From: Bacilli bacterium
Lineage (GTDB): Bacteria; Bacillota_I; Bacilli_A; RFN20; CAG-826
Assembly: GCA_051872395.1 (NCBI GenBank)
Contig: JBJEDU010000035.1
Span: 5,740 to 69,739 of the forward strand
DNA length: 64,000 nucleotides
Direction of reading: 5' to 3'
The notes beneath the pieces were generated by a model. The model saw only the letters and a program-made list of their open reading frames with translations. It made no database searches and was not told the DNA's origin. A program made the position numbers and the translations under genes. Positions 41,381-64,000 of this stretch are shown here, one piece after another; within the stretch, counting starts at the first letter, position 1; each line of letters opens with the position of its first letter.

Positions 41381-41406
41381 ATTGATTTCCTCAAAAAATT
41401 AGACTA

Positions 41407-41429
41407 TTAACCCCCAAATTGGGGGTTAA
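41407..41429. promoter_or_regulatory. Perfect GC-rich inverted repeat TTAACCCCC-AAATT-GGGGGTTAA in ferredoxin-hydS intergenic region (possible attenuator/processing or protein-binding site)
   Basis: Read directly; U6 tract lies 8 nt downstream on transcribed strand, then RBS GAGGAAAT of hydS. Confidence 0.4.
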
Positions 41430-41443
41430 TCAGTAAAATGTAA

Positions 41444-41689: not shown

Positions 41690-41692
41690 AAA

Positions 41693-44305: not shown

Positions 44306-44311
44306 AATGTT

Positions 44312-44950: not shown

Positions 44951-44988
44951 TTGTCTCTCCTTATCAGTATTTTTTTACTGACATCGAT

Positions 44989-45019
44989 ATTATACATATG
45001 AAAATGTATATATGCAATA
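44989..45019 (-). promoter_or_regulatory. Putative rex promoter (-35 TTGCAT, -10 TATAAT on minus strand) with 6-6-6 palindrome ATACAT-N6-ATGTAT in the spacer
   Basis: Read on reverse complement of 44951-45105. Confidence 0.3.
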
Positions 45020-45107
45020 TAAAATGTTTTAAATAAATACTAGTTTGATTATATCAATACTTTTTATAAATAAAAAGAGTAATAAAAAATTACTTTTTTT
45101 CTATACT

Positions 45108-45146
45108 TTAAAAAATAAAAAAATCGTAAGTGAAACACTCACGATT
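45108..45146 (-). terminator. Rho-independent terminator of ATP-grasp gene (stem atcgtaagtg/cactcacgat, loop AAA, then U-rich tract on minus strand)
   Basis: Read directly; 10-bp stem, U7AU6 follows on transcribed strand. Confidence 0.55.
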
Positions 45147-45187
45147 AATAAAAATAATAATGAATAATTACTGAATTTTAAAAATTA

Positions 45188-46517: not shown

Positions 46518-48419
46518 TTATTCAACTTTATCATCGATGAGGTTGAAATCAATTTGAGAAACATCGAGATTATATCCGTATTTATTAACAGCGAAGCAAG
46601 TTGCAGCTTTATCTAAAATAAATGAATAGTAAGTATCTAAAACTTTATCATTTAAATACAAAACTGTTTTCGCTCCAAGAACGGATTCATTGTTGAATTT
46701 AAGTTTTAAATTTTGACCTTTAATGACTTCTTTTTTATTTGTCACTCTCGTCAAATTATCAAATGGAACAGTAATTTGATATTTATGTTTTCCTTCTAAT
46801 AATATCGAATTAGCGATTTTGATATTATTATTCAATAATTTGAACTTAGAAACACCATTTTTAGTATTAACTAAAACATCAAATTTATTTTCTAAAAGTG
46901 GATATTTACAAGTTAACACAGTGTCCATTTCTTTATTCATTAATACTAAATTCTCTTTCTTGACATAAACAGTAATATCATCATCAACATTTAAATCAAG
47001 AAGAGGTAATTTAACACCTAAATAAGTATCACGATCACTTGTTGAAATATAAAGGAGCATCGAATCTTTTGATTTTTCAATGATTTTGATTTTCGCTTTA
47101 ATTTCAATATCATCGTCTTTCTCTTTTGTTAATGAGAAATTCGCTGTATCAATTTTTAAAACCACATCATGGACACCAGTCCAATATGAAGGAAGGACAA
47201 ACGCTCTTTCGTTTTCTGTTAAAGGAATAAGTTTATCCCCAAGCGTAATTACACCATTATCTCCATCATATCTCGCTAATAAATAATTGAAATTAGTCAA
47301 ACCAGAAATACGATTTTGATTATTTGCATCAAATAGATGAATGTGACGAGTGTGGAATTTAACAGTAATGACATCGCCTTCTTTAATTTCTTTTCTTCCA
47401 TCAATTTTACAAACGATAGGAATTTCTGTTTCATTAATTTTTCCATAGACGATAAGTTCAGAACCAAGTTTTTCAATAACATCGACAAAAACTTTAAAAA
47501 CGTCACTTCCAGAAACTTCATCTGTTTGATAAATTTCTTCTGGACGAATACCAATTTTTACATCTTTGCCGATATAATCTAAACTCACTAATTGGTGAAT
47601 TGTGTCTTCATGTAAAACGATTTTACAAGTCGATTCACCACTTGTTATTGTCGCATAATATTTATTCTTTTCTTTCGATAACTTCGCATCAAATAAATTC
47701 ATTTGAGGCGCGCCTAAGAAAGTCGCGACGAAAATATTTGTTGGATGGTCATATAAATTTGTTGGGGTATCAATTTGTTGAATGACACCATCTTTCATAA
47801 CGACAATTTTACTCCCCATTGTCAAGGCTTCGGTTTGGTCATGGGTAACATAAATGAAAGTTGTTTGAAGTCGACGATGAAGTTTAGTAATTTCGCTTCT
47901 CATTTGAACACGTAGTTTTGCGTCTAAGTTACTTAAAGGTTCATCGAGCAAGAATACTTTTGGTTCACGAACAATACTTCTTCCTAACGCAACTCTTTGA
48001 CGTTGACCACCTGAAAGAGCTTTTGGTTTACGAGTCAAATAATCAGTTAAACCTAATATTTCTGCTGCGGCTTTAATACGTCGGTCAATTTCATCATTAT
48101 CAACATGAGCGAGTCTTAAACCAAATGCCATATTTTCATAAACGGTTTTATGTGGATATAAGGCATAATTTTGGAAAACCATTGTAATATCACGGTCTTT
48201 TGGAGGTAATTCGTTCACTAATGTATCTCCAATATAAAGATCACCTGAAGTAATTGCTTCAAGACCTGCAATCATTCTTAAAGTTGTTGATTTACCACAT
48301 CCAGAAGGTCCAACAAAGACAACGAAATCTTTATCATCGATTTTTAAATTCAAATCGTTGACCGCTTTGACACCTCCATCATAAACTTTGTAAATGTGGT
48401 CTAATTTTAAACTCGCCAT
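46518..48419 (-). CDS. MalK/MsmX-type sugar ABC transporter ATP-binding protein with about 260-aa C-terminal extension
   Basis: Walker A GPSGCGKST, signature LSGGQRQR, Walker B FLLDEPLSNLD, TOBE-like domain to about aa 370, then additional unique about 260 aa. Confidence 0.85.
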   Translation of the reverse strand: MASLKLDHIYKVYDGGVKAVNDLNLKIDDKDFVVFVGPSGCGKSTTLRMIAGLEAITSGDLYIGDTLVNELPPKDRDITMVFQNYALYPHKTVYENMAFGLRLAHVDNDEIDRRIKAAAEILGLTDYLTRKPKALSGGQRQRVALGRSIVREPKVFLLDEPLSNLDAKLRVQMRSEITKLHRRLQTTFIYVTHDQTEALTMGSKIVVMKDGVIQQIDTPTNLYDHPTNIFVATFLGAPQMNLFDAKLSKEKNKYYATITSGESTCKIVLHEDTIHQLVSLDYIGKDVKIGIRPEEIYQTDEVSGSDVFKVFVDVIEKLGSELIVYGKINETEIPIVCKIDGRKEIKEGDVITVKFHTRHIHLFDANNQNRISGLTNFNYLLARYDGDNGVITLGDKLIPLTENERAFVLPSYWTGVHDVVLKIDTANFSLTKEKDDDIEIKAKIKIIEKSKDSMLLYISTSDRDTYLGVKLPLLDLNVDDDITVYVKKENLVLMNKEMDTVLTCKYPLLENKFDVLVNTKNGVSKFKLLNNNIKIANSILLEGKHKYQITVPFDNLTRVTNKKEVIKGQNLKLKFNNESVLGAKTVLYLNDKVLDTYYSFILDKAATCFAVNKYGYNLDVSQIDFNLIDDKVE

Positions 48420-48421
48420 AA

Positions 48422-49336
48422 TTATTCTCCTTCCTTGGTGAGTAACCCTTTGTTAACAATTTCTTTCGAATATTTTTTGTTTATGAATTTGTCAAACATC
48501 TTGAAGGCATAAAGACAAAAACATAAACTCATATGTGAAAATCCATAAAGGACAATTAATATCAAACTAATAATTTGGATAAGTGCGATTGGAATAAAAA
48601 TATAAAGAAGAAAAAATAGCGCACTAATCGCAACAAATAATAAATTTAATGGATATAAAACAAACGATAACATCAAATTATTTTTTAATGCTGGAATAAA
48701 TTTAAAATTATATAGTGTCCCCGAGGCGAGGAGATAGAGGGACAGCATGATTGAAAATAGATATACGATAGTTAATAAAATTATTAATATCACTTTAACA
48801 AATGAAGGAATATCAGTCATTAAAGGATAAAAATAAATATTGGAAATATAAAGGAATGAAAAAAGAGAAAATATCGCACCACTTAAAAGGGAAGATTTTA
48901 TATTATCTTTGATTCCAAAAAAGAAATCTTGTCCGACATTGATTTTTGGATCTTGAAACACTAACTTCTTAATGACATAAAATAGTCCACCTAAACCAAT
49001 AAATCCAATAATTAATAAAGGAATTGAAATCAAAGAAGAAATCATATTTAAAGAGAAATTTCTTAAATCGATATCGGCTTGAGTTAATGAAGTGGTATCG
49101 ATTGGCTGCATCATATAAAGTTTCCAAATAAAATTAAAAGCGAAAAACGGAATAAAAAATAACGCGCTAAGAAAAGATAAAGCGATTAATGTTCCAAATC
49201 GATGAGATAAAATATCAAAATACGCATAAAAACGATTCGATGGAAGTTTATCTCCGTTTTTTGATCGATTTTTATTGAAGAAATTATATAATTTCGTTCC
49301 TCTTTTATTTTCTGACATTTTGTTTAAATTTTTCAA
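48422..49336 (-). CDS. Hypothetical membrane protein associated with sugar ABC locus (YesL/DUF624-like?)
   Basis: 304 aa, 6 hydrophobic helices, N-terminal basic cytoplasmic segment. Confidence 0.45.
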   Translation of the reverse strand: MKNLNKMSENKRGTKLYNFFNKNRSKNGDKLPSNRFYAYFDILSHRFGTLIALSFLSALFFIPFFAFNFIWKLYMMQPIDTTSLTQADIDLRNFSLNMISSLISIPLLIIGFIGLGGLFYVIKKLVFQDPKINVGQDFFFGIKDNIKSSLLSGAIFSLFSFLYISNIYFYPLMTDIPSFVKVILIILLTIVYLFSIMLSLYLLASGTLYNFKFIPALKNNLMLSFVLYPLNLLFVAISALFFLLYIFIPIALIQIISLILIVLYGFSHMSLCFCLYAFKMFDKFINKKYSKEIVNKGLLTKEGE

Positions 49337-50237
49337 TTTCAGTCATTGTTGGACAAGAATCAATCGCACCCTTTTTTAAAGTAGTCAACCCTCCAACAAT
49401 GTTCGCTGTGGTAAATATTTCTTTAAGTTCTTCTTTTGATAAAAGAGAATAATCTTTCTTATCAAATGAAGATAACAAATATGAATAGAAAGCATCACCT
49501 GCCCCCGTAGTGTCAACTGGTTTAACTTTATAAGTATCAATATGTTCAAGTTTATCTTGATAAAAATAGTAACTACCATTTCCACCATCAGATAGACAAG
49601 TGAAGATATTTTTATTAACTAAAGAAGATAGTCCTTTAATAATATCTTTTTCTCCAGTTAATATTTCTAATTCATCAGTGGTGATTTTTAATATATCGAC
49701 ACTAGGAATGATGGATAAATAATATTTTTTACTTTCTTCTAAAGAAGAAAAAATATCGCTTCGATAATTGATATCAAAAGAAATTTTACATTTAGTGTTA
49801 TTTTTTAAATAATCAATCATCTTAATAAGTAATTCTCTACCTTCTTTAAAAGAAAGCATAAGAGAACCAAGATGAACAATATTAATATTTGAAAAATCAA
49901 ATTTTTTAAATGTTTCAAAATCTAATCGGTAATCCGCTCCATTATCGCGGTCAAATTTAAAATCTCTTTCCCCATCGGTTAAAGTGACGATTGCTTTCGA
50001 GGTATTATATGAATCAAGCTGTAAAATTTCTAATTTCTTAAAATTTTTCGTTTTTGCGAAATCACATAATAATTTCCCGTATCGATCTTTTCCAATCGCA
50101 CCAAAAAAGCAAACATCATTACCAAATAAAGTCAAGTTAGAGGCAACATTAAAAGGCGCTCCACCTGGGAAAACTGTTTCATTTTTATTTTCATCGACGA
50201 ATATATCCACTAATATTTCGCCAACACATAAAATCAT
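49305..50237 (-). CDS. PfkB-family fructokinase
   Basis: Ribokinase/pfkB signatures (GGAPFNVA, DTTGAGDAF); in fructan locus next to LacI regulator. Confidence 0.85.
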   Translation of the reverse strand: MILCVGEILVDIFVDENKNETVFPGGAPFNVASNLTLFGNDVCFFGAIGKDRYGKLLCDFAKTKNFKKLEILQLDSYNTSKAIVTLTDGERDFKFDRDNGADYRLDFETFKKFDFSNINIVHLGSLMLSFKEGRELLIKMIDYLKNNTKCKISFDINYRSDIFSSLEESKKYYLSIIPSVDILKITTDELEILTGEKDIIKGLSSLVNKNIFTCLSDGGNGSYYFYQDKLEHIDTYKVKPVDTTGAGDAFYSYLLSSFDKKDYSLLSKEELKEIFTTANIVGGLTTLKKGAIDSCPTMTEIEKFKQNVRK

Positions 50238-50239
50238 AT

Positions 50240-51187
50240 TTAGGCCGTTTCTCCGATTACAAATTCTGTTTTTATTTTATAAAGACTATCGACTTTTTCT
50301 TTCTTTATTCTTCTAAGCAAGACATCGACAGTAACTTTTGCCATCTCTTCGATATTTTGTCTCACTGATGTAAAAGTTGGAACTTGAATCCACTTATTCA
50401 TACATCCATCATAGGTAATAATATCGATTTTTTTATTAATATCATTGCAAATTCGATAAAACGCAAATCCAAAAGCGTCACTTGTCGCAAATAAGGCATC
50501 AACGTCAGGATACTTTTCATTGAATTGCAATGATCTTAATATTTCTTCACCATGTCTAAAATCTTCGTAATAGACATAAGATTCAAGATTGTATGCTTTA
50601 ATAAAATCTAAGTAAGCATCATATCTTTTTGATACTTCACTTTCGACTTTTGGACATCCACCTATAAACCCGATTTTGCGGTGTCCTTTTTGATATAAAT
50701 ATTTCAATGCTTTATAAGTTGCATCATAGTTGTCTGAAGTTATGCAAGGAACATTTTTTCCAAAGTGACGATCAATAGTCACTACTGGAAGCGATGAGTC
50801 GAAATGTCTATATTTATTATGAGTAATGAATATAATTCCATCGACTTGATTATGAGAGAGTAAATCAATAAATTCTTTTTCTCTTTCAACATCATTCGCG
50901 CTTCCAGTAATTAGAAGTTTATATCCATTGGCATGAGCTTCATTTTCTATCGCTTGAATCATCAACGCGAAGAAAGGATGACTAACAACAGGAACACATA
51001 AGGCGATCGTCTTAGTTGAATTATCTTTAAACATCTTCCCAATTGAATTTGTTTTGTAATTCAATTCATTGATAGCTTTTTCAATTTTTATGCGAACCTC
51101 TTTAGAGACATAGCCGTTATTAAAATAACGTGAGACAGTTGATTTTGATACTCCTGCAGATTTTGCTACATCCAAGATGCTAGACAT
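50240..51187 (-). CDS. LacI-family transcriptional regulator
   Basis: N-terminal HTH (ILDVAKSAGVSKSTVSRYFNN), periplasmic-binding-like sugar sensor domain; 315 aa. Confidence 0.85.
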   Translation of the reverse strand: MSSILDVAKSAGVSKSTVSRYFNNGYVSKEVRIKIEKAINELNYKTNSIGKMFKDNSTKTIALCVPVVSHPFFALMIQAIENEAHANGYKLLITGSANDVEREKEFIDLLSHNQVDGIIFITHNKYRHFDSSLPVVTIDRHFGKNVPCITSDNYDATYKALKYLYQKGHRKIGFIGGCPKVESEVSKRYDAYLDFIKAYNLESYVYYEDFRHGEEILRSLQFNEKYPDVDALFATSDAFGFAFYRICNDINKKIDIITYDGCMNKWIQVPTFTSVRQNIEEMAKVTVDVLLRRIKKEKVDSLYKIKTEFVIGETA

Positions 51188-51292
51188 TATTCTCCTTCCT
51201 CCCTAATCGTTGAATAATTCTTATTATGTATAATAGAACTAATTTTGAATAATAAAATTATATAGTAATTGTTTCGTTAGAGTAATTATATT

Positions 51293-53182
51293 CTATCTAT
51301 GAGAATACTTTTTCTTTTTGACAATTAATATAATTAATGCGCTGATAACTACAATTGAAATAATTGAAACAAATCCGACAAGTGTGTTGCCATTACTAAT
51401 GAAGTTTACATAAACGGAACCTAAAGTAGAAACAACAGCGGCACTATTCATATAGTTAATTGTTTCAACTACACCACATTTAGTAACTACGACATCATTA
51501 AGGTAATAAGTTTCACCTGGATCTACAATATTATTGTAATTATAATCATCGCTATTATTAATGATGGTTTTCGCAGTTACATCACTTATCGCATTATATT
51601 TACTAACTATATCGTTTCTTGTTTCAGTAGATAATTGACACAATGTATCACTACCATAATTACGCACTGTCGCATAGAATTCATCTAAGAAATTGAATGC
51701 TTTGAGTACAGAATCATTTTCTTCTTCAATATTTGAAACACCACGAACATATTTTGGATAAACAACGCCTTTGAATGTTTGATCTGGAGTCGCATCACAG
51801 GTTTGTTTAATAATATTGTCATCGAGTTCAACTTTAATGTCATTAACATTTAAATTGAATCTAATTTCATCAATATAGGATAAACCCCATCCATCACCGG
51901 TATTATTTTCACCGATTTCTAAATAAACGGTTTTTCCAACTAAACCAGAAATATCAACAAATACTTCGGTCATAGTATTAATCATACTTTTGCTGCTAAC
52001 AATATTGGCTACACCATTATCAACGAAGTAACGCATATTATTTCCAGTAGGAGTAAATTCAAATAAAACATCTTCAGTAGTAGAGTCAATTAAACGAACA
52101 TTAGCTTTCGCTGCTCCAATACGGAATGCCATATAATTATCTGTAATATTGATAGTAAATTTTGATCTTAATAATACTTTTACAGTTTCAGCAATTCCAG
52201 TCCAAGTTGGGTGAGTAGAGAAAAATTTATTACCGTGTTTATTAAATGGCATATGTTCTGCCCATTCATAACAATCTCTGGAAGAAATCATAGCGTTCCA
52301 CATATCATTTGTTAATTCAAGTGTCGATGAATCTTCATTGATAGAAAGATTAGTGAAATAATCCGCTAAAGCGATACCTTCAAAATCTAAAACCTCATAA
52401 CTTTGCCAATCATTTGATCTAAATGATGCAAATTCTTCAGTTTCATTGATTTTGCTCATCATATAGGCGTATTGACCAGCGTCTTTGTCGCCATCTGTTT
52501 GAGTGAGATAAGCATTTTTACGATAAGCCCTAATATCATTAGTAACATCCTCTGCAGTTTGATTGAATTTCAAACCACCGAAGTTGACAATACCAAATCC
52601 GCCAGTATTATTATCGACAACACGAACTGAAATATAATGATCGACATAATCCGCTAAATCAGCGACACGAATGTATAAAGCTTCACCAGTTTTTGGATCA
52701 TGAAATAAGCCAACATTCGTGAATTTTTTGATAGCAACACTACTGGTATTATCAGTGCCATTATCAATAATTTCGACATAGAGATTTTCTTCATTCGCTC
52801 CACCGCCTAAATAGAAAGTAAGATATCTTTCTGTTTGTTTGACTGGAGTTTTTAATTGAAGCTTTGATGTATTAGCGTCTCCACTTGCGGTTATTGTTTC
52901 ACCATCAGTGTCATAATTAACATCATCTACGCTTCGGTAAAAATCGATACCCTCTGGTACAAAGAATGAACGCACTGACCACCATCTACTAGTGCTGTTT
53001 GATGTAGGAAAACAACCAGTTGTTCCATCGACATATTCAAATGTATCACTACTGAATGCCACAGAAGTAACTGGGGATTCATCTTCTGCTTTTGCAACAT
53101 GACTATTATTTGCTTTCAAACCACTTGCAAATAATAATGACGCCATGAAAACAGGGACGAATAATAATTTCTTATTTTTCAT
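51293..53182 (-). CDS. Cell-surface protein with signal peptide, two degenerate CBM_4_9-like modules and C-terminal TM anchor
   Basis: Signal MKNKKLLFVPVFMASLLFASG; module endings LYIRVADLADYVDHYISVRVVDNNTGGFGIVNFGGLKF and VYLEIGENNTGDGWGLSYIDEIRF; C-terminal hydrophobic anchor plus KKKK. Confidence 0.6.
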   Translation of the reverse strand: MKNKKLLFVPVFMASLLFASGLKANNSHVAKAEDESPVTSVAFSSDTFEYVDGTTGCFPTSNSTSRWWSVRSFFVPEGIDFYRSVDDVNYDTDGETITASGDANTSKLQLKTPVKQTERYLTFYLGGGANEENLYVEIIDNGTDNTSSVAIKKFTNVGLFHDPKTGEALYIRVADLADYVDHYISVRVVDNNTGGFGIVNFGGLKFNQTAEDVTNDIRAYRKNAYLTQTDGDKDAGQYAYMMSKINETEEFASFRSNDWQSYEVLDFEGIALADYFTNLSINEDSSTLELTNDMWNAMISSRDCYEWAEHMPFNKHGNKFFSTHPTWTGIAETVKVLLRSKFTINITDNYMAFRIGAAKANVRLIDSTTEDVLFEFTPTGNNMRYFVDNGVANIVSSKSMINTMTEVFVDISGLVGKTVYLEIGENNTGDGWGLSYIDEIRFNLNVNDIKVELDDNIIKQTCDATPDQTFKGVVYPKYVRGVSNIEEENDSVLKAFNFLDEFYATVRNYGSDTLCQLSTETRNDIVSKYNAISDVTAKTIINNSDDYNYNNIVDPGETYYLNDVVVTKCGVVETINYMNSAAVVSTLGSVYVNFISNGNTLVGFVSIISIVVISALIILIVKKKKYSHR

Positions 53183-53203
53183 AAGTCTAGTTTTCTCCTT
53201 TCT

Positions 53204-55426
53204 TTAAAGTGTATTTATAGCGTTAGCCCAAGGAATATCTGTCACTACTGGCGGGTTACCAGTAACTTCAACTTGGGATACGGTATCAAATTTTGTTGAG
53301 ACATCAATTTCAGTCTCATAATAAGTGACGATTTCATCAAAGAAGACAACTTGCCATCCTCCATCGATAACTTCATCCACTAATTCGATATATAAGTTTT
53401 CTCCAATATAATCACTTAAATCAGCAACATAAGTTACCATTGTTGCTAAGCGACAACCATTAGAAACAGATGGGAAATTAACATCCGCGAAATTATAATT
53501 TTCATATTTTGCAATCATTTCGCCATTTTCTCTTCTAACAATTACTCTCGTGGAACGACCACCTAATTTAAATGAGATTTGTCCACTACCACCTAAGGTG
53601 AAATTAGTGGATTTAAATGAGAAGCCATTTGATTCTTCTACTCCGGCATCCCATCCATTGAAGAAGTATGTTCCAGTTTTGTTATAAGGAATTTCTTCAC
53701 TCCAGAAGGTATCAAGCGAACAAATGGCCGCATTGAGATTTGGACTACCACTTGTAATGGTCCAGCCAGTGGCATCTCCAGTTTCAAATCCACCATTAAC
53801 GATGTTATTATCGTAAGTCATCTTAGTAACAACTTCGATTTTGATTGTACCTACTGAAACATTGTTATAAGCATCAGTCGCGCTGAAAGTATATAAATAT
53901 GTTCCGTTTTGACTTAAATCACAAGCATAGTAATTGACATCTTCTAAAGTTGTTCCGTTTCTACTTAATGAAACTGAACGAATGACGAGATCATTTCTAA
54001 CAGTGTAATCATCTTTAATAGTTGTATTTTTGATGAGTTCCACTAAATTGTATGAACTACTAGCAGAAATCATTGTTTGATAAGCGTAATCGTTTTCATC
54101 GACTGAAATGACAGGAGCGTCTCCACCTACTGGGAATGAAATAACATTGTTATAAGCATCAATATAGGCGTTTTTCGCTACGCTATCATCGTTATATAAA
54201 CTACCATCCACTAAAGAAGCTCTTTCATTAATGATGGTTTCTTGACTCAAATTAATTCTGAATTCGTCAGCGTTAATTGCTGCAAAGCCTCCACTAGTCG
54301 CATTATCGTTAATAGTGAAATATAATGTTTGACCAATATAATTTGATAAATCGACATAATATCTCACTAATGAAAGTGATAATTCTGGGTCTTTAAAGGC
54401 AATGTTTTTAATTTTAATTAACTCTTCGCCTGTTAAACCGTTGTTAACAGCGATATATCCACTCGCGTCTTTAATACCACCTAATAAAACCGAAGCGTAT
54501 GAGGTGTTATTGCCTTGATCGGTGACGAGGAATTTTTCACTTCTTATCGTGCCGGTTAAATTTTCAGCATTTTTATATCCATTAAGGAAATAATTTCCAC
54601 TTGCGTTATGTTTTCTATCGGTCCAGAAATTTTCACTACTTAAACTAACTGAACCTTGAGTAAAGGCATTACCTTTAAGTATTTTCCAATAAGATAAATC
54701 GCCAGTTTCAAACCCACCATTTCTTAATTCTGTCACTGGAGGGTCATTATCGATGACTTCATCATGATATTCAATTAATTGTTCTTCTCTTTGAGTTCTT
54801 GCATCATTTAATTCTTGAGCGTTTTTCAAAATGCGAACATCATCGAGATTGACAAATGAATAATCGATATAATCACTATTTCTATCATTATCAGTAACTT
54901 TGATATAAATGACTTTTTCAAAATAATCACTCAAATCAACAACTTGTCTAATAAGTTGAGATTTAATGGTCGAATCATTGAAATCATCATTTGTTAATTT
55001 TGTGACTGTTTCTTGTTTTTGATTGACAATAAATGAAAGTGGTTCCGTTTTGCCGTATTCAAAAAATTCAATATAGCAATTTTCTTTATTTTTCATCGCT
55101 CCAATTTTTAAGGTAATTTGACCGATACCTTCTAAAACGAATGGATCTGAGATTAAACTACCAGTAAATGATGGAAGAGAAGAATAACCACCTACATAAC
55201 AATATGACCCTTCTTTATTTGTTGGAAGTCCGTCATTAAAAGTATCGATGTTCACAATATCTTCTTCTGTGAATGCACCTTCACCACTGACAGTCCAGCC
55301 TGTAATTCCATCTTCAAAGCTTCCGTTAGTGACACTATCAGGGAAAGAAGTAGTATCAGTGGTATCTTTTTGACAGCCAGTTAATAAAAGAGGGAGAATC
55401 AATAAGGGGAGAATCTTTTTGTTCAT
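53204..55426 (-). CDS. Surface lipoprotein with three tandem CBM_4_9-like beta-sandwich modules (putative fructan-binding protein)
   Basis: Lipobox LLLTGC; three repeats starting NGSFEDGITGW / NGGFETGDLSYW / NGGFETGDATGW and ending (V/Y)VDLS(D/N)YIG..LY(F/I); 740 aa. Confidence 0.65.
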   Translation of the reverse strand: MNKKILPLLILPLLLTGCQKDTTDTTSFPDSVTNGSFEDGITGWTVSGEGAFTEEDIVNIDTFNDGLPTNKEGSYCYVGGYSSLPSFTGSLISDPFVLEGIGQITLKIGAMKNKENCYIEFFEYGKTEPLSFIVNQKQETVTKLTNDDFNDSTIKSQLIRQVVDLSDYFEKVIYIKVTDNDRNSDYIDYSFVNLDDVRILKNAQELNDARTQREEQLIEYHDEVIDNDPPVTELRNGGFETGDLSYWKILKGNAFTQGSVSLSSENFWTDRKHNASGNYFLNGYKNAENLTGTIRSEKFLVTDQGNNTSYASVLLGGIKDASGYIAVNNGLTGEELIKIKNIAFKDPELSLSLVRYYVDLSNYIGQTLYFTINDNATSGGFAAINADEFRINLSQETIINERASLVDGSLYNDDSVAKNAYIDAYNNVISFPVGGDAPVISVDENDYAYQTMISASSSYNLVELIKNTTIKDDYTVRNDLVIRSVSLSRNGTTLEDVNYYACDLSQNGTYLYTFSATDAYNNVSVGTIKIEVVTKMTYDNNIVNGGFETGDATGWTITSGSPNLNAAICSLDTFWSEEIPYNKTGTYFFNGWDAGVEESNGFSFKSTNFTLGGSGQISFKLGGRSTRVIVRRENGEMIAKYENYNFADVNFPSVSNGCRLATMVTYVADLSDYIGENLYIELVDEVIDGGWQVVFFDEIVTYYETEIDVSTKFDTVSQVEVTGNPPVVTDIPWANAINTL

Positions 55427-56826
55427 TATTTTTTGACTCCTAAACCATGTTTAATTAAATTGTTGATTATCACTTCACTATTATTATTAATAGGGGTGAT
55501 TTTAAATTTTGTTCCAATTTTTTTGAAATAAGTTGATGAAAAAGAATATTTTCCATCGTTTATAAGAATATCGATACAAGAATTATCGATAATCATATCT
55601 AGTTTGAGATGAGTGAGATTGTCATCAATATCAATGATGCGATTTTTCGCATCAGTTAAATCTTTATTGACTATTTCTATATCCATGTTGTTTCTTGACA
55701 CAGTGATGTTGTTATTTATAACACTGACAGTGATATCAAAATCATCTTCAACACTGATTTTATAATCACCATTTGAAACAATTTCTATTTCAATACGACA
55801 ATTTCTCGAAGATAAATTATCATCGCTAAATTCACTATTGATATGGACATTATTTAAACAGTATTCATCAGTGTAATAATTCTTAATCGAAGGAATGAAT
55901 GATTGATACATCAAGTTATCAATGATTTTAATTTCACGAATAAAGGTAAATTGTCCAACATAACCTTCTTCTTGACTTGGATAGTTTCTATCCCACATAT
56001 TTTCCCACGCGACAAGATAAGATTTTCCATCTCTTTGTAGTGTTTGCGTTGCATAGAAATCAAATCCATAATCAACTTCTTTGACATCGCTTAAATGTGA
56101 CAAGACACCACTTTCTAAATCGATGATTCCAGTTTGATAAACTGTCGAATGGACATTTTGAAATTTGTTTTTAATTTTTTCTTTAAATTGCATGCAATAA
56201 ATCAAACAAATTTCATTTTTCTCTTTGTTAGTAAAAATGACATCTGGGCATTCAATCATTCCATTATTGATATCTTCTAATCTCATCACTTCATTAATAA
56301 AACCATAGTTTCTAAAATCTAAAGTTTTATATAAAAGTAAAGAGACTCCTTTATCTTTTCTTCTTGCCCCAATAAAGACATAGAAGACATCATCTTTTTC
56401 AATAATTTTTGGATCACGAAAATCCGCGACAATAAAATCATCTGGAAGATTATATTTAGAAATGACTGGATTAAAATGTGATTTAACAAAATGATTTCCA
56501 TCGACAGAAGTCGCTAAGCATTGAACTTGTTCATTTTCATTCGCTCCAGTATAAAGAAGATAAAGAGTTTTACCATGAACCATCGCACTTCCTGAAAAAC
56601 AACCATAAAATTTTTCATATTCTTCAGTTGGAAATAAAATAATTCCTTCTTCATTGAAAGTCACTAAATCTTCACTGGTGAAATGTAACCAGTGCATCGT
56701 GTCCCATTTGACACTATTGGGATTGTGTTGAGCGAAAAGATGATATTTTCCGTTGTAATAAATAAAACCATTTGGATCGTTAATCCAACCTTTTTTTGCT
56801 GTAATATGTAATTTTGGACGATACAT
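55426..56826 (-). CDS. Intracellular GH32 beta-fructofuranosidase (sucrose-6-P hydrolase/invertase-like)
   Basis: GH32 blocks WINDPNG, FRDPK, ECPD; no signal peptide; 466 aa. Confidence 0.9.
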   Translation of the reverse strand: MYRPKLHITAKKGWINDPNGFIYYNGKYHLFAQHNPNSVKWDTMHWLHFTSEDLVTFNEEGIILFPTEEYEKFYGCFSGSAMVHGKTLYLLYTGANENEQVQCLATSVDGNHFVKSHFNPVISKYNLPDDFIVADFRDPKIIEKDDVFYVFIGARRKDKGVSLLLYKTLDFRNYGFINEVMRLEDINNGMIECPDVIFTNKEKNEICLIYCMQFKEKIKNKFQNVHSTVYQTGIIDLESGVLSHLSDVKEVDYGFDFYATQTLQRDGKSYLVAWENMWDRNYPSQEEGYVGQFTFIREIKIIDNLMYQSFIPSIKNYYTDEYCLNNVHINSEFSDDNLSSRNCRIEIEIVSNGDYKISVEDDFDITVSVINNNITVSRNNMDIEIVNKDLTDAKNRIIDIDDNLTHLKLDMIIDNSCIDILINDGKYSFSSTYFKKIGTKFKITPINNNSEVIINNLIKHGLGVKK

Positions 56827-56835
56827 AAATAATTT

Positions 56836-58872
56836 TTATAAAACCTCAATTGTATTTTTAATTAAGTTTGTAATTTTTGATTTTCCTGTCGAATAAACTG
56901 AATAATTTAATTCATTATTTGTGGGGTACACTAATCCACTCATGGTGTAATAACCATCATTAATGAATACTTCTACGCTTGAAACATCGACATAAATTTC
57001 AAGAGTGATTTTGTTATCGATTGGAGTGATAGATGCATATCTAACATCTAATTCTCCATCATCGTCTGCAGTGGAAATTTTTCTACCACTATTTCGACGA
57101 TCGAATACAACTTTTTGAATTGTAGAATCGTAATAGATATTAGTTTCTTCATCTTCACCTTTTAATAATTTGAAGCCAACTGTTCCATTTAATTCACTAA
57201 CATCAATTTCTGCTTTAAATGTCAATGTATTACCAGAAAAATCTAAGCCAACTTCATTATTATCTAGCGATATTTCATCGACAACTTGTTCATTGACGAA
57301 ATAATTTTTTATCGCTGATATTGGTTTTTGATAAAGATGATTATCTTTGAGTTCTAAGGTTCGAGGAAGAGTAACTTCACCAGTCCAACCATCGACGCTG
57401 GAAGGATAACTTCTCGACCACATATTCATCCACGCAAGCATAATGGCTTCATCATCATGATTAAGTGTTTGTGTCGCATAGAAATCGAATCCTTTATCAA
57501 ATTCTTCCATGTAATCCGTGCCATTATCGTTCGTGAATGTTCCATTTGTATAATCAATGTGTCCGATTTGATAAGTCACTGAATGCATATTTTGATAAAT
57601 TGAGATATCTTCATTTCTCACAGATTGAGGAGAACTTAAGATAATGTCTTTTCCACCAACTTCAACATAATTTGGACACTCAAACATTCCAGTATTGGTA
57701 ATTGTTGAATCGACGAGCGTGCCAAGATATTTCCAAGATAAGAAATCATTTGATTCATAAAGTAATATCTTGCCTCCTGGACCTTCATTTTTTCCACCCA
57801 CTAAAGCGTAATATTTACCATCTTTTTCATAGACGTATGGATCTCTAAAATCAGTAATTCTTGAACCTTGTCTCATCGATGAATCAATGACAGGGTTTTT
57901 ACTTCTTTTTGTGAAATTAACGCCATCAAAAGAGGTGGCAATTGCTTGTTGTTGAACACCATTTGGTCCGACCGCAGTATACATGACATAAAGTTTGTCA
58001 TCAATGGTTAAGGCTCCACCCGAGAAAACTCCTAAAGAGTCATATGATTTATCAGGAGCGAAAGCGACAGGTAAATATTCCCATTTAACTAAGTCTCTAC
58101 TTCGTGCATGTCCCCAGTGCATCGTGTCCCAATTTGGACTATAAGGATTATGTTGATAAAACAAATGATAATAACCATCGTAATAACATAAGCCGTTTGG
58201 ATCGTTCATCCATCCGATATCAGGCATGAGGTGATATGTATGTCGATATGTATCACCAACATCACCAGCGTGACTCGAAACATAATTTCTTGCATCTTCT
58301 AGTAATGTTCCAATATCTTCACTACCTTCATAATCGAGAAGTACATCATCAAGAAGGATATGATTGAATCCATCCGTGCCATTGTCGTTATCGACGATTT
58401 TTAAATATAATTCTTTGTTGAGATATTTATTTAAATTTACTTTTAATCGATAAAGTCTATCGTTTGGTGCTTCTTCGTTAAAAAATTTATTAGTGATTCG
58501 ATATACTTCTTCGTTCGTGGAAGCATCGATAACACTGACATATACTTTATCTTTATAGCGACCTCCACCAATAAGAAGAGATAAGACCCCATTCTTTTTT
58601 AATTTGAATGGACTACTTGTCAAAGTTCCAGTCGCCGAATCTCCAGCTTGATATCCATCTAAGAAGAAGTTACCAACCACATGACGCTTTGTTATAGCAG
58701 AATCATCAGCGATTTGAACTGAATTTAATGAATAAGCATTGCCAGTGGCTTTCCAACCAAGAAGTGAACCATCTTCAAATCCACCATTGAGTAATTCATT
58801 TTTAGCATTTGAAGAGGAAGAACAACTTGTTAATAACAAAAGTGGAATTATAAGTGATATTTTTTTATTCAT
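56836..58872 (-). CDS. Surface lipoprotein GH32 exo-fructanase (levanase/inulinase-type) with N-terminal CBM_4_9-like module
   Basis: Lipobox LLLLTSC; N-terminal NGGFEDGSLLGW module; WMNDPNG, FRDPYV, MFECPNY; C-terminal beta-sandwich. Confidence 0.9.
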   Translation of the reverse strand: MNKKISLIIPLLLLTSCSSSSNAKNELLNGGFEDGSLLGWKATGNAYSLNSVQIADDSAITKRHVVGNFFLDGYQAGDSATGTLTSSPFKLKKNGVLSLLIGGGRYKDKVYVSVIDASTNEEVYRITNKFFNEEAPNDRLYRLKVNLNKYLNKELYLKIVDNDNGTDGFNHILLDDVLLDYEGSEDIGTLLEDARNYVSSHAGDVGDTYRHTYHLMPDIGWMNDPNGLCYYDGYYHLFYQHNPYSPNWDTMHWGHARSRDLVKWEYLPVAFAPDKSYDSLGVFSGGALTIDDKLYVMYTAVGPNGVQQQAIATSFDGVNFTKRSKNPVIDSSMRQGSRITDFRDPYVYEKDGKYYALVGGKNEGPGGKILLYESNDFLSWKYLGTLVDSTITNTGMFECPNYVEVGGKDIILSSPQSVRNEDISIYQNMHSVTYQIGHIDYTNGTFTNDNGTDYMEEFDKGFDFYATQTLNHDDEAIMLAWMNMWSRSYPSSVDGWTGEVTLPRTLELKDNHLYQKPISAIKNYFVNEQVVDEISLDNNEVGLDFSGNTLTFKAEIDVSELNGTVGFKLLKGEDEETNIYYDSTIQKVVFDRRNSGRKISTADDDGELDVRYASITPIDNKITLEIYVDVSSVEVFINDGYYTMSGLVYPTNNELNYSVYSTGKSKITNLIKNTIEVL

Positions 58873-61231
58873 AAATTGAATTCATCCTTGTAATTTTTAT
58901 GTAATTAATACTGACGTTTCCTTCTTCAAGAAGAGAGATTCCATTCGCATATAAATCGCTTGGATAACTTCTCGCTGAAATTGTTTTTTGAGAATTGAAA
59001 TTAACTTCTATTTGACTTCTATCAACATATAAAACGAGTTGAACTTTGTTTTCACTAGTTTTATAAGTGAATGGAGAATAATAATAATCTCCACTGGTAT
59101 ATGAAGAATTTACTTGATTGAGTGAAGTATTAACTCCTCCAGTTGAGGTAGAACCATCAAAATAAACAATGGTTCTTTCTTCACTGATAGAAGATTCTCT
59201 TATATTGAGTTTTAAAGTTGAATTATTAGGAACAAATTCCATCTCTAATTTATACATATCGTCATCAAAATCTTTTAATGATTCGTTAAAAGAAGAAATG
59301 GATGGATTATTTGCTTCATAAATGATTTCACCTTCAATTCCTTCGGTATTGATGAAATCAATGCCTAAATCATTAGTGGAAGTATCATAAAATACTTTTC
59401 TAACGAGTCCAACATTATGCGACCACCCAGATTCCGAAAGAAGTGAGGAAGGGCGTTTTGATTGCATGATTGAAAAAATCATTGCATCATTACTAATCGG
59501 ATCAATGAATCCACTTGGACCAGTAAAAACATTTTGACCTAAGTCCATACGTCGAGGGTTGGAGAATGAAGGAATAAAACGACAATTAACTTTGTCAAAT
59601 TCGCCAATCCAATAGATAACATTGTTGTCTGCTGTGGTCGCAGGTGCTGGTGAAATTATAAAAACGTACTTATTGGTAGTATTTCCGTTTTCATCTTTTA
59701 AAGGTAATAAAACTGGAAGTTCCCATACATTGCCCATCTCTAACGATGCGACATTGTATTCAAATAGGTGACCACGATATTCCCAGTTATGAAAATAATC
59801 GACTTTATTGACATTCGTGGTATAAATAAGTGCAGTACCACATGAATTATTTTCATTACCACTTCCAATGACAAGGTAATAATTATCTCCATCTTTTAAG
59901 ATGGTCATATCTCTAAATTCATTGCTTCGACCTTGTCCTTGAAGTTGTGCGATAGCGAGTCGATCACTTACTTCCCATTCTGTTAAGTATGGATCAGATA
60001 AATCTTTTGGATAAGCAATACCAACATTTTGATTGCTCACTAATCCTGGATGAGCGTAGTTACCGGCAGTAAAAAATAAATAAGGAACTCCATCTTTATC
60101 GTAAGTTGATCCACCACTCCAGACACCATCAGGGCACACGGTACCATTTTTAAAGACGACAACTTCTTTTCTTGGTGTCCAATCAACCATATCAGTACTA
60201 GTTAAATGTCCCCAAACAATTCCTTGAGCGTCATTAAAATATGGTCCGTTAGGATTGCATTGATAAAATAAATGGTAGACCCCATTGTAATATATTGGAG
60301 CGTGTGGTTCATTCATCCAATGTTCATATGGACCACCATGATATTGTGGTTTATATAAATCATCAGTTAATGAATTTTGTAGCCATACATCGTTAAAATC
60401 ACATGTTTTGATATTGTGATTTTCATCTAGACATGATTCGTAATAACTTCTAATCGTTGAATACGATAAGGCTTTTTTATACATGCGTAACTCATCTAAT
60501 AAACCAGAAATCATTCCTTTGGAACAATCTCCACTTGAAGAAGTAACGCTATTTTTTCCTATTAATAATGGAATATCGTCCGCGCGAAGGATATAACTAT
60601 CTTTTTCAATTTCGACACGATTGATAATTTTTCCATTTCTAAATAATTGAAGTTCACCATTGACCCCATCAAATTTAGCGAGGACATGGTTCCATTCATA
60701 TTGGTCGAGTGGACTATTGACATCAGTAATTTCTACCCAGCCATTATTAGTGCCAACACCAAAATATATTTGGCCTTCTCTTTTATAGCCTAAGGTAAAG
60801 CCCATAGAAAAGGTATCATCTCGATAATATTGTGAAGCGACAGCTTGAATTATCGTGTCGCTTGTATTATTGATATCACTCCAGTTATAACTTCTTGGAG
60901 CAATCCAACAAGAAATAGTGAATTCTTTTCCAGAAACAGAAAATTTTTCACTATCGATTTCTCCATAAATTGAATATCCATCAAAGACCATCGCATCTTT
61001 AACTACACCATCTTTAAAAGGAACTTCTTGTCTTTCTAAAGTTGAAGAGTTATGAAGATGATAATTCATTTCCACACTATTAATTTTCTTTGTTGAATCA
61101 ACTAAAAGAGAAGAATCGTTTTTATCAAAAGCAAAATACGCAATCATCGATGAATTATAATTATCATTTGATGAAGAACAACCAGTTAACAATAATAATG
61201 AAGATAAAGCAATAATCGATATTTTTTTCAT
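58865..61231 (-). CDS. Surface lipoprotein GH32 with N-terminal LamG/concanavalin-like domain and WMNEP active-site block (putative endo-fructanase)
   Basis: Lipobox LLLLTGC; LamG-like region aa about 35-265; GH32 blocks WMNEPHA (Glu at nucleophile position, codon RC of 60308-60310), EFRDM, NVWELP. Confidence 0.85.
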   Translation of the reverse strand: MKKISIIALSSLLLLTGCSSSNDNYNSSMIAYFAFDKNDSSLLVDSTKKINSVEMNYHLHNSSTLERQEVPFKDGVVKDAMVFDGYSIYGEIDSEKFSVSGKEFTISCWIAPRSYNWSDINNTSDTIIQAVASQYYRDDTFSMGFTLGYKREGQIYFGVGTNNGWVEITDVNSPLDQYEWNHVLAKFDGVNGELQLFRNGKIINRVEIEKDSYILRADDIPLLIGKNSVTSSSGDCSKGMISGLLDELRMYKKALSYSTIRSYYESCLDENHNIKTCDFNDVWLQNSLTDDLYKPQYHGGPYEHWMNEPHAPIYYNGVYHLFYQCNPNGPYFNDAQGIVWGHLTSTDMVDWTPRKEVVVFKNGTVCPDGVWSGGSTYDKDGVPYLFFTAGNYAHPGLVSNQNVGIAYPKDLSDPYLTEWEVSDRLAIAQLQGQGRSNEFRDMTILKDGDNYYLVIGSGNENNSCGTALIYTTNVNKVDYFHNWEYRGHLFEYNVASLEMGNVWELPVLLPLKDENGNTTNKYVFIISPAPATTADNNVIYWIGEFDKVNCRFIPSFSNPRRMDLGQNVFTGPSGFIDPISNDAMIFSIMQSKRPSSLLSESGWSHNVGLVRKVFYDTSTNDLGIDFINTEGIEGEIIYEANNPSISSFNESLKDFDDDMYKLEMEFVPNNSTLKLNIRESSISEERTIVYFDGSTSTGGVNTSLNQVNSSYTSGDYYYSPFTYKTSENKVQLVLYVDRSQIEVNFNSQKTISARSYPSDLYANGISLLEEGNVSINYIKITRMNSIYE

Positions 61232-61233
61232 AA

Positions 61234-62145
61234 TTATTTTAATCCTGTAAAGGAAACTCCTTCGACGATATATTTTTGACAGAAAATATAGACGATCGCG
61301 ATTGGAATCGTCGATATAGTTAATGAGGCCATGACCATACCAATATCTCTTTGCGCTGCACTATTGACGACTTGAAGAAATACTTGTAAAGGTTGTTGGT
61401 CAGTCGTTGGGAACATCAATTGAGCGAAAATGTATTCGTTCCATTGTCCCATAAATGTAAAGATAGCCACTGTCGCAAAAATTGGTTTTGATAATGGAAC
61501 TATCATTTTGAAAAATACCCCAATACGAGAGCAACCATCAATTCTTGCCGCTTCTTCAATTTCCACTGGCATTCCTAAAAAATATTGACGGAACATATAG
61601 GTGTAAAACAAAGACGCAACGCTAGGTAATAAATAACCAATGACATTTAAAGGTTTGGCTAATAAACCTAAATAGTAAAGAACTAAATATGTTGGAACGA
61701 TACTCGTTTCAATTGGAATAATCATTAAAACCAAAATGATTGTTGTCATCAATTTATTTCCTGGAAATCTAATTTTCGCTAAAGCATAACCAGATAAAGA
61801 ATTAATGACGAGAACTGAAACAATCATCACACTACAATAGAGAATAGAATTGAGAATGGATTGACCAAAATTTTCCATCGAATTGAATAATTTGATATAA
61901 GAAACAAACCATTCAGTAATATTCCAACTAGGTGGGAAAAATGTCCATATTGTCGATAATTGACGATTGACAGTGTCATTGTCTTTGAATGAGTTTGAAA
62001 GCATCCAAATGACAGGGAATAAAAATATAAACGCCAGTAAAGCGCAGCAAATAGCCACAATCGCAGTCTTTAAAATCTTGCTAATTTTGATATTCTTTTT
62101 AACTTTTGAAATGTTTTCAACGTGAGATAAATATTCCATTTTCAT
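61234..62145 (-). CDS. Sugar ABC transporter permease (MalG/UgpE-like)
   Basis: 6 TM, EAA-type loop (EAARIDGCSRIGVFFKMIVPLSKP). Confidence 0.9.
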   Translation of the reverse strand: MKMEYLSHVENISKVKKNIKISKILKTAIVAICCALLAFIFLFPVIWMLSNSFKDNDTVNRQLSTIWTFFPPSWNITEWFVSYIKLFNSMENFGQSILNSILYCSVMIVSVLVINSLSGYALAKIRFPGNKLMTTIILVLMIIPIETSIVPTYLVLYYLGLLAKPLNVIGYLLPSVASLFYTYMFRQYFLGMPVEIEEAARIDGCSRIGVFFKMIVPLSKPIFATVAIFTFMGQWNEYIFAQLMFPTTDQQPLQVFLQVVNSAAQRDIGMVMASLTISTIPIAIVYIFCQKYIVEGVSFTGLK

Positions 62146-62149
62146 AAGA

Positions 62150-63085
62150 TTATGCCTCGTTATCTCCGCCTAAAGCTTTTCTTAATGTTAAGGAAACTGT
62201 GGCTAAAATGATGGTATAGAATAAGGCAATCGCGGATGAATATCCGACATCCTTATATGTAATACCTTGTTTGTAAATGTAATATGACATTGTAAGCGTA
62301 GAATCTAATGGTCCACCACCAGTCATAATCATTGGTTGAACACAAATTCTAAAAGCTCCAATTAGCATCGTAATGAAGACAAAAACCATCGTTGGTTTTA
62401 ATCCTGGAAGGGTGACATTAATAAATTTTTGCCATGCGTTAGCCCTATCGATATCAGCGGCTTCATAAACATCACGTGGAATATTTTTAAGACCACTTAA
62501 TAAAATTAACATTTGATATCCAGCGCCTTGCCAAGCAGAAATAAATATAATACTTCCCATCGCTAAATTTGGATCATCAAGGAAGGCGACCGGATTAGCA
62601 CCCATTGCCAGTAATAATGTATTAATTAAACCATTTTGAGTATTTAATAAATTCATCCATAGCATTGATGTGACCGCTAAAGATAACATAACAGGGACGA
62701 AAAACGCCCAACGGAGAAATGTATTAAATCTTTTAATTTTATTTAATAAAAGTGCTAAACCTAAAGCAGTACCGAATTGTAAAGGCATAACACCTAAAAC
62801 AAATATCGCGGTATTTCTTAAGGCAACAAGAATTTTTGTATCATGCACTAATCGGACAAAATTTTCAAATCCGACAAATTTCATTTGAGTTAATCGACCC
62901 ATATTCGCATCAGTAAACGCCATCGTTAAAGAGAAAGCAATTGGAATGAAAACGAATATGATAGATAAAATCATACAAGGCGCAATAAAGGCTAAACCCG
63001 TTAACGATTCGTTAACGGTGTATTCTTTTTTGCCGATTTTAAAGTGATTTTTCTTTCGCTTAAAAGCGATATTTTCAACAGTCAT
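62150..63085 (-). CDS. Sugar ABC transporter permease (MalF/UgpA-like)
   Basis: 6 TM, EAA loop (EAADIDRANAWQKFINVTLPGLKP). Confidence 0.9.
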   Translation of the reverse strand: MTVENIAFKRKKNHFKIGKKEYTVNESLTGLAFIAPCMILSIIFVFIPIAFSLTMAFTDANMGRLTQMKFVGFENFVRLVHDTKILVALRNTAIFVLGVMPLQFGTALGLALLLNKIKRFNTFLRWAFFVPVMLSLAVTSMLWMNLLNTQNGLINTLLLAMGANPVAFLDDPNLAMGSIIFISAWQGAGYQMLILLSGLKNIPRDVYEAADIDRANAWQKFINVTLPGLKPTMVFVFITMLIGAFRICVQPMIMTGGGPLDSTLTMSYYIYKQGITYKDVGYSSAIALFYTIILATVSLTLRKALGGDNEA

Positions 63086-63086
63086 A

Positions 63087-64000
63087 TTAGCCTCTTGAAG
63101 CGTCGACTACACTCATCAATTCTTGAATTTTATTTTTTAAGTTATAGTTAGAAACAATGTTCATATTCTTGATGTATTCAAGAACACTACCATACGCATC
63201 TTTTAATTGAGGATATTTGACCATTTTAGGTCTAGTAAATGTATTAGCTTGTAAATAGATTGATAATGAATGAGCAGGACCAGTTGATAATTCATCCATT
63301 GTGGAAAGAAGTGTTTTGTTTGTTGGGAATGTACCAATCGCGTCATACATCATTCTCGATGCACTTTCGCCAGTGAGGTATTTAACCGCAATCGCTGCGG
63401 CTTCAAGATTTTTACTATCTTTGGTAATACCAAATCCATAACTACCACATGGAGAAGCAAAAATATTGCTCTTATTTCCATTTTCGTCTTCATAAACTGG
63501 ATAAGGCATAATATCGTATTGATCTTTTAACGAAGAAGTACCTTTGGAAATCTTTCTAGCATCCCATGGACCATGAATTTGGAAAGGAATTTGTTCTAAA
63601 ACGAAAGCACTATCACTAGTTCCAGAATAGACCCAAGATTCATTATTAGAAAGTCCAGTTTTGGAATAAAACATTTCTAGTTGAGCAATTCCACTGACAG
63701 CGTTATCTGTCGTCAATGCTTCAGTGACATGGTCGTCAGTGCCAAAGGTTGCTCCTGCCGAATACACTAATGGAGAATATAAATACATATATCCATCAGT
63801 GCCAAAACCAGTATTTAAGGCAATTTGATATGGTTGATTTGCCGCTTTTAATCTAATTTGGGCATCATGAACATCTTTGAATGACCAAGGATTTTCAAGC
63901 GTACCAAAATCCGCGTCAGTGTAACCAACTTTATATAACATTGCTTTGTTATAATATAATCCACCTGGGGCTTCCATCCCACTAAGTGAATATAATTTTC
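63087..64000 (-). CDS. Extracellular solute-binding protein of sugar ABC transporter (C-terminal part; 5' end beyond window)
   Basis: Open frame continues to window edge; family-1 SBP-like sequence; position upstream of permeases. Confidence 0.8.
   Translation of the reverse strand, partial: KLYSLSGMEAPGGLYYNKAMLYKVGYTDADFGTLENPWSFKDVHDAQIRLKAANQPYQIALNTGFGTDGYMYLYSPLVYSAGATFGTDDHVTEALTTDNAVSGIAQLEMFYSKTGLSNNESWVYSGTSDSAFVLEQIPFQIHGPWDARKISKGTSSLKDQYDIMPYPVYEDENGNKSNIFASPCGSYGFGITKDSKNLEAAAIAVKYLTGESASRMMYDAIGTFPTNKTLLSTMDELSTGPAHSLSIYLQANTFTRPKMVKYPQLKDAYGSVLEYIKNMNIVSNYNLKNKIQELMSVVDASRG

Follow-up and report, generated by a model that had tools for sequence, protein, structure and literature searches.

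Gram-positive polysaccharide utilization loci (gpPULs) are defined by the combination of an enzyme, a transporter and a regulator (Sheridan et al. 2016, PMC5320581), and the fructan gpPULs of Eubacterium rectale and Roseburia inulinivorans (Eub-3 and Eub-4; PMC5320581) bring together GH32 enzymes, an ATP-binding cassette (ABC) transporter, a LacI-family regulator and a fructokinase. We analyzed a 64,000-nt stretch of DNA from a Bacilli bacterium (contig JBJEDU010000035.1, positions 5,740 to 69,739; hereafter the window), which has a low GC content (~30%) and carries a locus with the same four components at nt 46518-64000. Gene calls were based on open reading frames (ORFs) and on Pfam and NCBIfam scans. 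The sizeable ORFs of this region are all encoded by the minus strand and are separated by short gaps or overlap; they include three GH32 enzymes, a LacI-family regulator and the full set of ABC importer components, which corresponds to the gpPUL definition and agrees with the organization proposed in the initial annotation. We conclude that the region is probably an operon-like, gpPUL-type fructan utilization locus of an uncultured anaerobic low-GC Bacilli lineage, with inulin-type β-2,1 fructan and its oligosaccharides as the likeliest substrate. In contrast to Eub-3 and Eub-4, it encodes three GH32 enzymes, two non-catalytic module proteins, a MusI-like subunit and its own extended ATPase, and its modules are of the CBM38 type rather than CBM66. 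The label "Gram-positive" has to be taken loosely, since the database entry of an identical protein reads "MAG: Bacilli bacterium" (MAG, metagenome-assembled genome) and close relatives are labeled Tenericutes, Anaeroplasma or Izemoplasmatales.

At the center of the locus is a module of about 180 amino acids that is present in six copies. Three of them are found in p740 (nt 53204-55426), a non-catalytic lipoprotein of 740 aa, at nt 54779-55339, 54200-54733 and 53270-53809. A single copy (nt 58270-58800, aa 25-201) precedes the exo-type GH32 domain of the surface lipoprotein GH32-678 (nt 56836-58872), and two degenerate copies (nt 52511-53062 and 51815-52396) are carried by p629 (nt 51293-53182), a secreted, membrane-anchored protein of 629 aa. 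In BLASTP comparisons, the N-terminal 180 residues of GH32-678 matched p740 three times (E-values of 7e-23, 2e-20 and 1e-13) and p629 twice (1e-07 and 0.02), and p629 matched the modules of p740 and GH32-678 at 1e-07 to 2e-08. A profile made only from the repeats of cycloinulo-oligosaccharide fructanotransferases (CFTases) of other organisms recovered all six copies with E-values from 9.3e-48 to 1.6e-09, namely those of p740 at 1.7e-20, 5.5e-32 and 9.3e-48, that of GH32-678 at 1e-27 and those of p629 at 1.9e-11 and 1.6e-09. Because this independent profile detects every copy, the six modules are real by sequence comparison, well beyond chance, and the p629 copies are true, albeit degenerate, homologs.

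The six copies had been predicted in the initial annotation, and the start and end motifs quoted there are visible in our alignments; the NGxFE start is missing from the p629 copies. The three p740 copies are present as described; they are not strictly tandem, however, since copies 2 (aa 232-409) and 3 (aa 540-719) are separated by a helical linker and a β-rich insert of ~95 aa (nt ~53822-54109). The p740 modules are 25-38% identical to one another, and modules 2 and 3 share a W-W/E signature with CFTase repeat R1.

CBM38 was reportedly described by Lee, Kim and Choi in 2004 as the inulin-binding module of the Paenibacillus (Bacillus) macerans CFTase. The family is founded on residues 32-389 of this enzyme, which comprise two β-sandwiches that bind inulin and levan at low micromolar concentrations (PMC10076258); we mapped the founder coordinates via the P. 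polymyxa and B. circulans CFTases and the literature statement, not via the P. macerans sequence itself. Relatives of the window modules occur in two cultured Paenibacillus genomes within a 2230-aa S-layer protein composed of five modules, a laminin G (LamG)+GH32 core and one further module. With this protein as query, we retrieved the CFTase of Niallia (Bacillus) circulans (BAA24360/O52973, 1503 aa) and a cluster of P. polymyxa CFTases that includes AAL82574/Q8RLU3 (1333 aa). A window-family module profile built without any Paenibacillus sequence matched the P. polymyxa CFTase at residues 76-255 (7.5e-64), 261-398 (5e-18) and 1169-1333 (5e-36) and the B. circulans CFTase at residues 58-237, 243-421, 424-563 and 1332-1502, and module 3 of p740 is 45.6% identical to CFTase repeat R1 (E 2e-42). 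Homology of the modules to the CBM38 region was thus found with both CFTases that were compared, and on this basis we would assign the modules to CBM38 with high confidence. The window family is therefore not an uncharacterized one, as had been supposed, because characterized CFTases carry homologous repeats at both their N and C termini; CBM38 had been listed among the profiles to be checked and was the right lead.

The same pattern appears outside Paenibacillus. A Defluviitalea protein has been annotated by dbCAN as CBM38(44-189)+CBM38(221-367)+CBM38(409-527)+GH32(808-1121)+CBM38(1313-1448) (PMC7355431), and our window-family profile places modules in the same arrangement in two proteins of identical architecture (P0121 and P0284). 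In common with the CBM38 of CFTases, the modules described here are homologous β-sandwich units of ~150-180 aa that are associated with GH32 and repeated within one protein. The two differ in context, as the repeats flank the enzyme in CFTases, whereas in the window three copies make up the non-catalytic p740 and two degenerate ones the membrane-anchored p629. CBM66, a binder of levan ends exemplified by SacC of B. subtilis, had also been listed for checking. We rejected this identity, since no CBM66 structure came up in any PDB sequence or fold search that we ran and no similarity of sequence or fold to it was seen.

The structural models agree with a carbohydrate-binding fold. A single p740 module was modeled by AlphaFold2 with a mean predicted local distance difference test (pLDDT) score of 94.4, and its fold neighbors are the CBM of a GH31 transferase (12.7), TmCBM61 (12.6), CBM16 (12.6) and CBM4-2 (11.3; fold-comparison scores in parentheses), followed by CBM22, CBM4 and others. 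The previous description of the module as a CBM_4_9-like β-sandwich thus holds at the level of the fold; as a Pfam assignment it does not, given that CBM_4_9 (PF02018) scores 17.8 bits against a cutoff of 25.9. Like the NCBIfam family NTTRR-F1, which is also below threshold, it covers only the shared N-terminal motif, and both were discarded. A profile search of PDB sequences with the module gave a weak match to a CBM61-bearing galactanase (E 5e-4), and no solved structure of the module family was matched in the PDB sequence searches. The full-length p740 model (pLDDT 89.9) shows a helix after each sandwich. Its β-rich insert (aa ~440-535) is confidently modeled and contains conserved DDYT and DAY motifs without a Pfam match; Foldseek with the full-length model returned only generic multi-β-sandwich proteins (such as reelin and CBM51 proteins) and did not identify the fold of this insert. 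No Pfam family was above threshold in either p740 or p629. We dismissed a PHB_acc_N match in p629 and GH130 matches in GH32-678, which were sub-threshold or due to the shared β-propeller.

All three enzymes of the locus contain a Glyco_hydro_32N domain (Pfam, 2e-50 to 3e-93); Glyco_hydro_32C is above cutoff in two of them and at cutoff in GH32-466. GH32-678 (GH32 at nt 56866-58233, aa 214-669; N-terminal domain 3e-93, C-terminal domain 1e-27) has the canonical motifs WMNDPNG, FRDP and ECP. The same applies to GH32-466 (nt 55426-56826), a predicted cytoplasmic β-fructofuranosidase with WINDPNG, FRDP and ECP (Pfam N-terminal domain 7e-80; NCBIfam scrB_fam 6e-97, which is under its cutoff). The nearest solved structures of both are β-fructofuranosidases or sucrose-6-phosphate hydrolases (7vco at 3e-84 for GH32-678, 7bwb at 6e-60 for GH32-466). 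Because of the canonical motifs and these closest structures, exo action is a reasonable reading for GH32-678 and GH32-466.

The third enzyme, GH32-788 (nt 58865-61231), is a surface lipoprotein, as indicated by Pfam and an LPAM_1 match, in which a Laminin_G_3 domain (nt 60452-60967, aa 89-260) precedes the GH32 catalytic and C-terminal domains (nt 58892-60340). Its motifs WMNEPHAP, FRDM and WELP depart from the canonical ones and are conserved in four diverged homologs; Glu replaces Asp at the nucleophile position, and a residue other than Cys follows the acid/base Glu. Over the LamG+GH32 region (residues ~420-1146 of the P. polymyxa CFTase), GH32-788 is 33% identical to CFTase (E 1e-128), with an identical VWELPVLLPL around the acid/base residue and a common WMNE.HAP, which reads WMNEAHAP in CFTase. 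A Glu in the corresponding motif is also known from the fungal endo-inulinase INU2, in which Glu43 of YWMNEPNG is catalytic and EVP surrounds the acid/base (PMC5245892), although the overall similarity of GH32-788 to INU2 (PDB 3RWK) is only 4e-18. The match to the solved endo-levanase 9h8i is weak (4e-08 over ~90 residues). GH32-788 thus shares the LamG+GH32 core of CFTases, whereas it has no CBM38 repeats of its own, is lipid-anchored and carries WMNEPHAP instead of WMNEAHAP. Endo cleavage at the surface had been proposed in the initial annotation; because of the Glu nucleophile motif and the 33% identity to CFTase, we regard an endo-inulinase-like or transferase role of GH32-788 as plausible. 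In cultured Paenibacillus, two LamG_3-GH32 paralogs stand side by side (L046:5656-8037 and L046:9917-16606), a lipoprotein with WMNEPHAP and an S-layer-anchored protein of the CFTase type with WMNEAHAP. Cultured strains with the homologous locus include Paenibacillus endophyticus CECT 8234 (L046) and Paenibacillus sp. 2TAB23 (L041).

The connection between the module proteins and fructan genes extends beyond the window. The p740 relatives with 52%, 36% and 28% identity are each encoded in a locus composed of a substrate-binding protein (SBP), permeases, GH32, LacI and a kinase. When GTDB species representatives were scanned with the full-length family alignment, we obtained 51 loci with a p740 relative, 45 of which have at least one GH32 gene within 10 kb and 43 a LamG-GH32 gene; half of the six loci without a nearby GH32 are contigs of less than 8 kb. 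The loci span Bacilli, Christensenellaceae, Oscillospiraceae, Lachnospiraceae and Paenibacillus, and gene order varies among them. In the closest Bacilli loci, a two-module homolog of p629 comes after the p740 homolog. An exhaustive search of representative sequences showed that the module family is large, with 3999 clusters at 50% identity for E <= 1e-3 and 1501 for E <= 1e-10. Among the best 142 new representatives, ~18 are fused to LamG+GH32, and 39 other representatives that we sampled carry only Big_2, FIVAR and similar (Ig-like) spacers. A profile search of a 5.8-billion-protein index with the six-copy alignment returned no matches, which we attribute to a failure of sensitivity and not to absence, because a whole-protein query and the exhaustive representative search reveal a large family. 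Likewise, scanning genome contigs with a single protein as query gave no matches, while the full-length family alignment did find relatives.

The predicted protein locations are consistent with the previously proposed scheme of capture, surface cleavage, ABC import and cytoplasmic processing by GH32 and fructokinase. GH32-788 and p740 have the lipobox LLTGC and GH32-678 has LLTSC; p629 has a signal peptide without Cys and ends in a hydrophobic helix (nt ~51320-51382) followed by KKKKYSHR; and a signal peptide is absent from GH32-466. According to our working model, an N-terminal lipid would anchor p740, GH32-788 and GH32-678 on the external side of the membrane, and p629 would be held there by its C-terminal helix. 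With its three CBM38 β-sandwiches displayed on helical and Ig-like spacers, p740 would hold the polymer at the surface, and p629 perhaps does so too. GH32-788, with its LamG domain and Glu-nucleophile GH32, may cut or rearrange chains internally, while GH32-678, which combines CBM38 with an exo GH32, would trim chain ends. The resulting oligosaccharides and fructose would be imported via the SBP, the two permeases, the MusI-like protein and the long MsmX-type ATPase, after which GH32-466 would complete hydrolysis in the cytoplasm and the PfkB kinase would phosphorylate fructose, with the whole set under the control of LacI.

As a non-catalytic, lipid-anchored, multi-β-sandwich protein encoded beside enzymes and a transporter, p740 resembles the surface glycan-binding proteins (SGBPs; SusE/F-like) of Bacteroides, and Foldseek gave a weak match of the p740 model to BtSGBP-B. 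The likeness is functional only, since there is no sequence relation and no SusC/D partner and p740 would sit on the cytoplasmic membrane of a monoderm.

Several observations weigh against the fructan locus proposed above. Binding and activity, both of the locus proteins and of stand-alone CBM38 proteins, are predictions; the W-W/E signature is missing from p740 module 1 and from both p629 copies, which may have drifted; and GH32-788 is closest to the uncharacterized WMNEPHAP lipoprotein paralog of Paenibacillus, not to CFTase proper. In addition, related modules occur on GH125 and in GH130/DUF1861 loci, and three distant loci encode two-module proteins beside a GH125 (itself with two modules), GH130 and DUF1861. 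Specificity for fructan is therefore not inherent in the fold family. This last point bears on the question of whether p740 and p629 could be general adhesins or scaffolds, or binders of another glycan, that merely travel with GH32 genes. Giant proteins of 9-10 modules with adhesin-like Big_2/FIVAR spacers and the degenerate p629 copies without the NGxFE start would fit such a role, as would the presence of the module family on GH125 and in mannoside-type loci. We consider it improbable, however, in view of the GH32 linkage in 45 of 51 loci, which holds in distant lineages and despite rearranged gene order, and of the 45.6% identity between p740 module 3 and a CFTase repeat from within the region for which inulin binding was defined by experiment.

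If the modules bind fructan, the linkage has to be considered. We lean toward inulin over levan, because of the CBM38 precedent, the affinities of GH32-788 with CFTase and endo-inulinase and the lack of CBM66. For the CBM38 founder, binding of levan is reported in addition to that of inulin (PMC10076258), promiscuity is common among exo GH32 enzymes of the 7vco/7bwb type, and the p740 modules are divergent enough (25-38% identity) that they could cover different linkages. The natural substrate might then be levan (β-2,6) or a mixed graminan-type fructan, with the CBM38 copies recognizing levan or chain ends. This is rather unlikely in our view, since GH32-788 aligns with the inulin-specific CFTase at E 1e-128 and has the INU2-type Glu nucleophile, whereas its endo-levanase match (9h8i) is confined to ~90 residues at 4e-08 and our searches did not find CBM66. 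The CFTase relationship also raises the idea that GH32-788 is a CFTase-like surface transfructosylase whose cyclic or otherwise unusual oligofructans are imported and opened by GH32-466, a selfish route comparable to the use of starch via cyclodextrins. It draws on the 33% identity over LamG+GH32 and the identical VWELPVLLPL, and on CFTase-encoding Paenibacillus loci that share the SBP, two permeases, a two-module lipoprotein, a LamG-GH32 lipoprotein and a cytoplasmic GH32. Nevertheless, 33% identity cannot separate a hydrolase from a transferase, the CBM38 repeats that flank the enzyme in CFTases are absent from GH32-788, this protein groups with the WMNEPHAP lipoprotein paralog and not with the WMNEAHAP clade, and no feature of the locus is specific for cyclic substrates, so we give this route little probability. 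A broader proposal, in which p740 and p629 form a SusE/F-equivalent capture apparatus of monoderm or wall-less gut Bacilli while GH32-788 makes private oligofructans for selfish import, as a counterpart of the cyclodextrin pathway, appears similarly doubtful to us. An inulin-directed gpPUL with CBM38-based surface proteins remains the interpretation that we prefer.

Locus type, GH32 enzymes and module family each belong to an already known kind, so that what is new here is modest, and the locus does not overturn current understanding. In the literature searched, we found no description of non-catalytic multi-CBM38 surface proteins, of the degenerate membrane-anchored partner or of the WMNEPHAP LamG-GH32 clade. 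This clade, with its Glu nucleophile, is sister to the industrially interesting CFTases, and the CBM family comprises thousands of sequences without a PDB match in sequence searches. Inulin and fructo-oligosaccharides are the most widely used prebiotics, and to our knowledge, the way in which gut organisms capture the polymer is understood in just a few cultured Bacteroides, Roseburia/Eubacterium and lactobacilli. Many MAGs of uncultured Bacilli and Clostridia retain the locus; judging from their record names, they derive from chicken, rabbit, mouse and human gut samples, and these lineages would possess a complete CBM38-based system for capture at the cell surface.

The remaining genes of the locus encode import, regulation and sugar phosphorylation. 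At its upstream end, the SBP of a sugar ABC importer (nt 63087-64000; SBP_bac_1 at 4e-16, and SBP_bac_8) has its 5' end beyond the window; an intact homolog of 450 aa is the first gene of the related locus L003. It is followed by permease 1 (nt 62150-63085; BPD_transp_1 at 2e-15), which is syntenic in related loci, and permease 2 (nt 61234-62145; BPD_transp_1 at 5e-15). While the inventory of SBP, permeases, three GH32 enzymes and module proteins given in the initial annotation agrees with our ORFs and domains, its lower boundary at nt 51293 has to be moved, as the locus continues with four genes at nt 46518-51187 that we include because they are syntenic in relatives. These encode a LacI-family regulator (nt 50240-51187; LacI 2.5e-16, Peripla_BP_1 1.5e-19), a PfkB-family sugar kinase that is a probable fructokinase (nt 49305-50237; PfkB 3e-39), a MusI/DUF624-like polytopic membrane protein of 304 aa (nt 48422-49336) and an MsmX/MalK-type ABC ATPase of 633 aa (nt 46518-48419; UgpC-type 2.5e-143). 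The MusI/DUF624-like protein has an NCBIfam MusI_fam match of 4.6e-05, under the family cutoff, and its L003 homolog has a weak DUF624 match; it is kept in 14 loci and is probably an accessory subunit of the ABC importer. In the ATPase, the ABC_tran, OB_MalK and TOBE_2 domains end at aa 363, and a C-terminal extension of ~265 aa without a Pfam match (aa ~366-633) follows. In 14 related Bacilli loci, the ATPase next to the fructan genes has retained this extension.

The sole strong terminator-like hairpin on the minus strand (nt 45146-45122) is found downstream of the locus. We rejected an intervening ATP-grasp gene (nt 45188-46384) as a locus member, since it is not syntenic in relatives. Together with genes for a Rex-type redox regulator, the bifunctional AdhE, an Fe-hydrogenase-like PAS protein and a SpoIIE-type phosphatase, it belongs to a minus-strand region (nt 38527-46384) of ordinary anaerobe housekeeping genes, for which synteny with the fructan locus was not seen in relatives.

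The module family also appears in other settings. In L057:1276-22584, and also in L055, L056 and L058, CBM38-like modules are part of non-fructan loci of Izemoplasmatales-type and other MAGs, which encode a GH125 with two N-terminal modules, a 1508-aa CBM_X2 and purple-acid-phosphatase protein with two modules, two GH130 proteins and DUF1861. These settings suggest that one branch of the family is specific for mannosides. Fructan loci of the Firmicutes style, encoding proteins of 4 and 3 modules, respectively, are located on two contigs labeled Akkermansia muciniphila and Coriobacteriaceae (L045 and L051), which have probably been mis-binned in those MAGs. The largest module proteins that we encountered are a 2273-aa Oscillibacter protein with 9 copies, which adjoins a p740 homolog (L024:2662-9480, minus strand), and a 3900-aa metagenomic protein with 10 copies (P0097).

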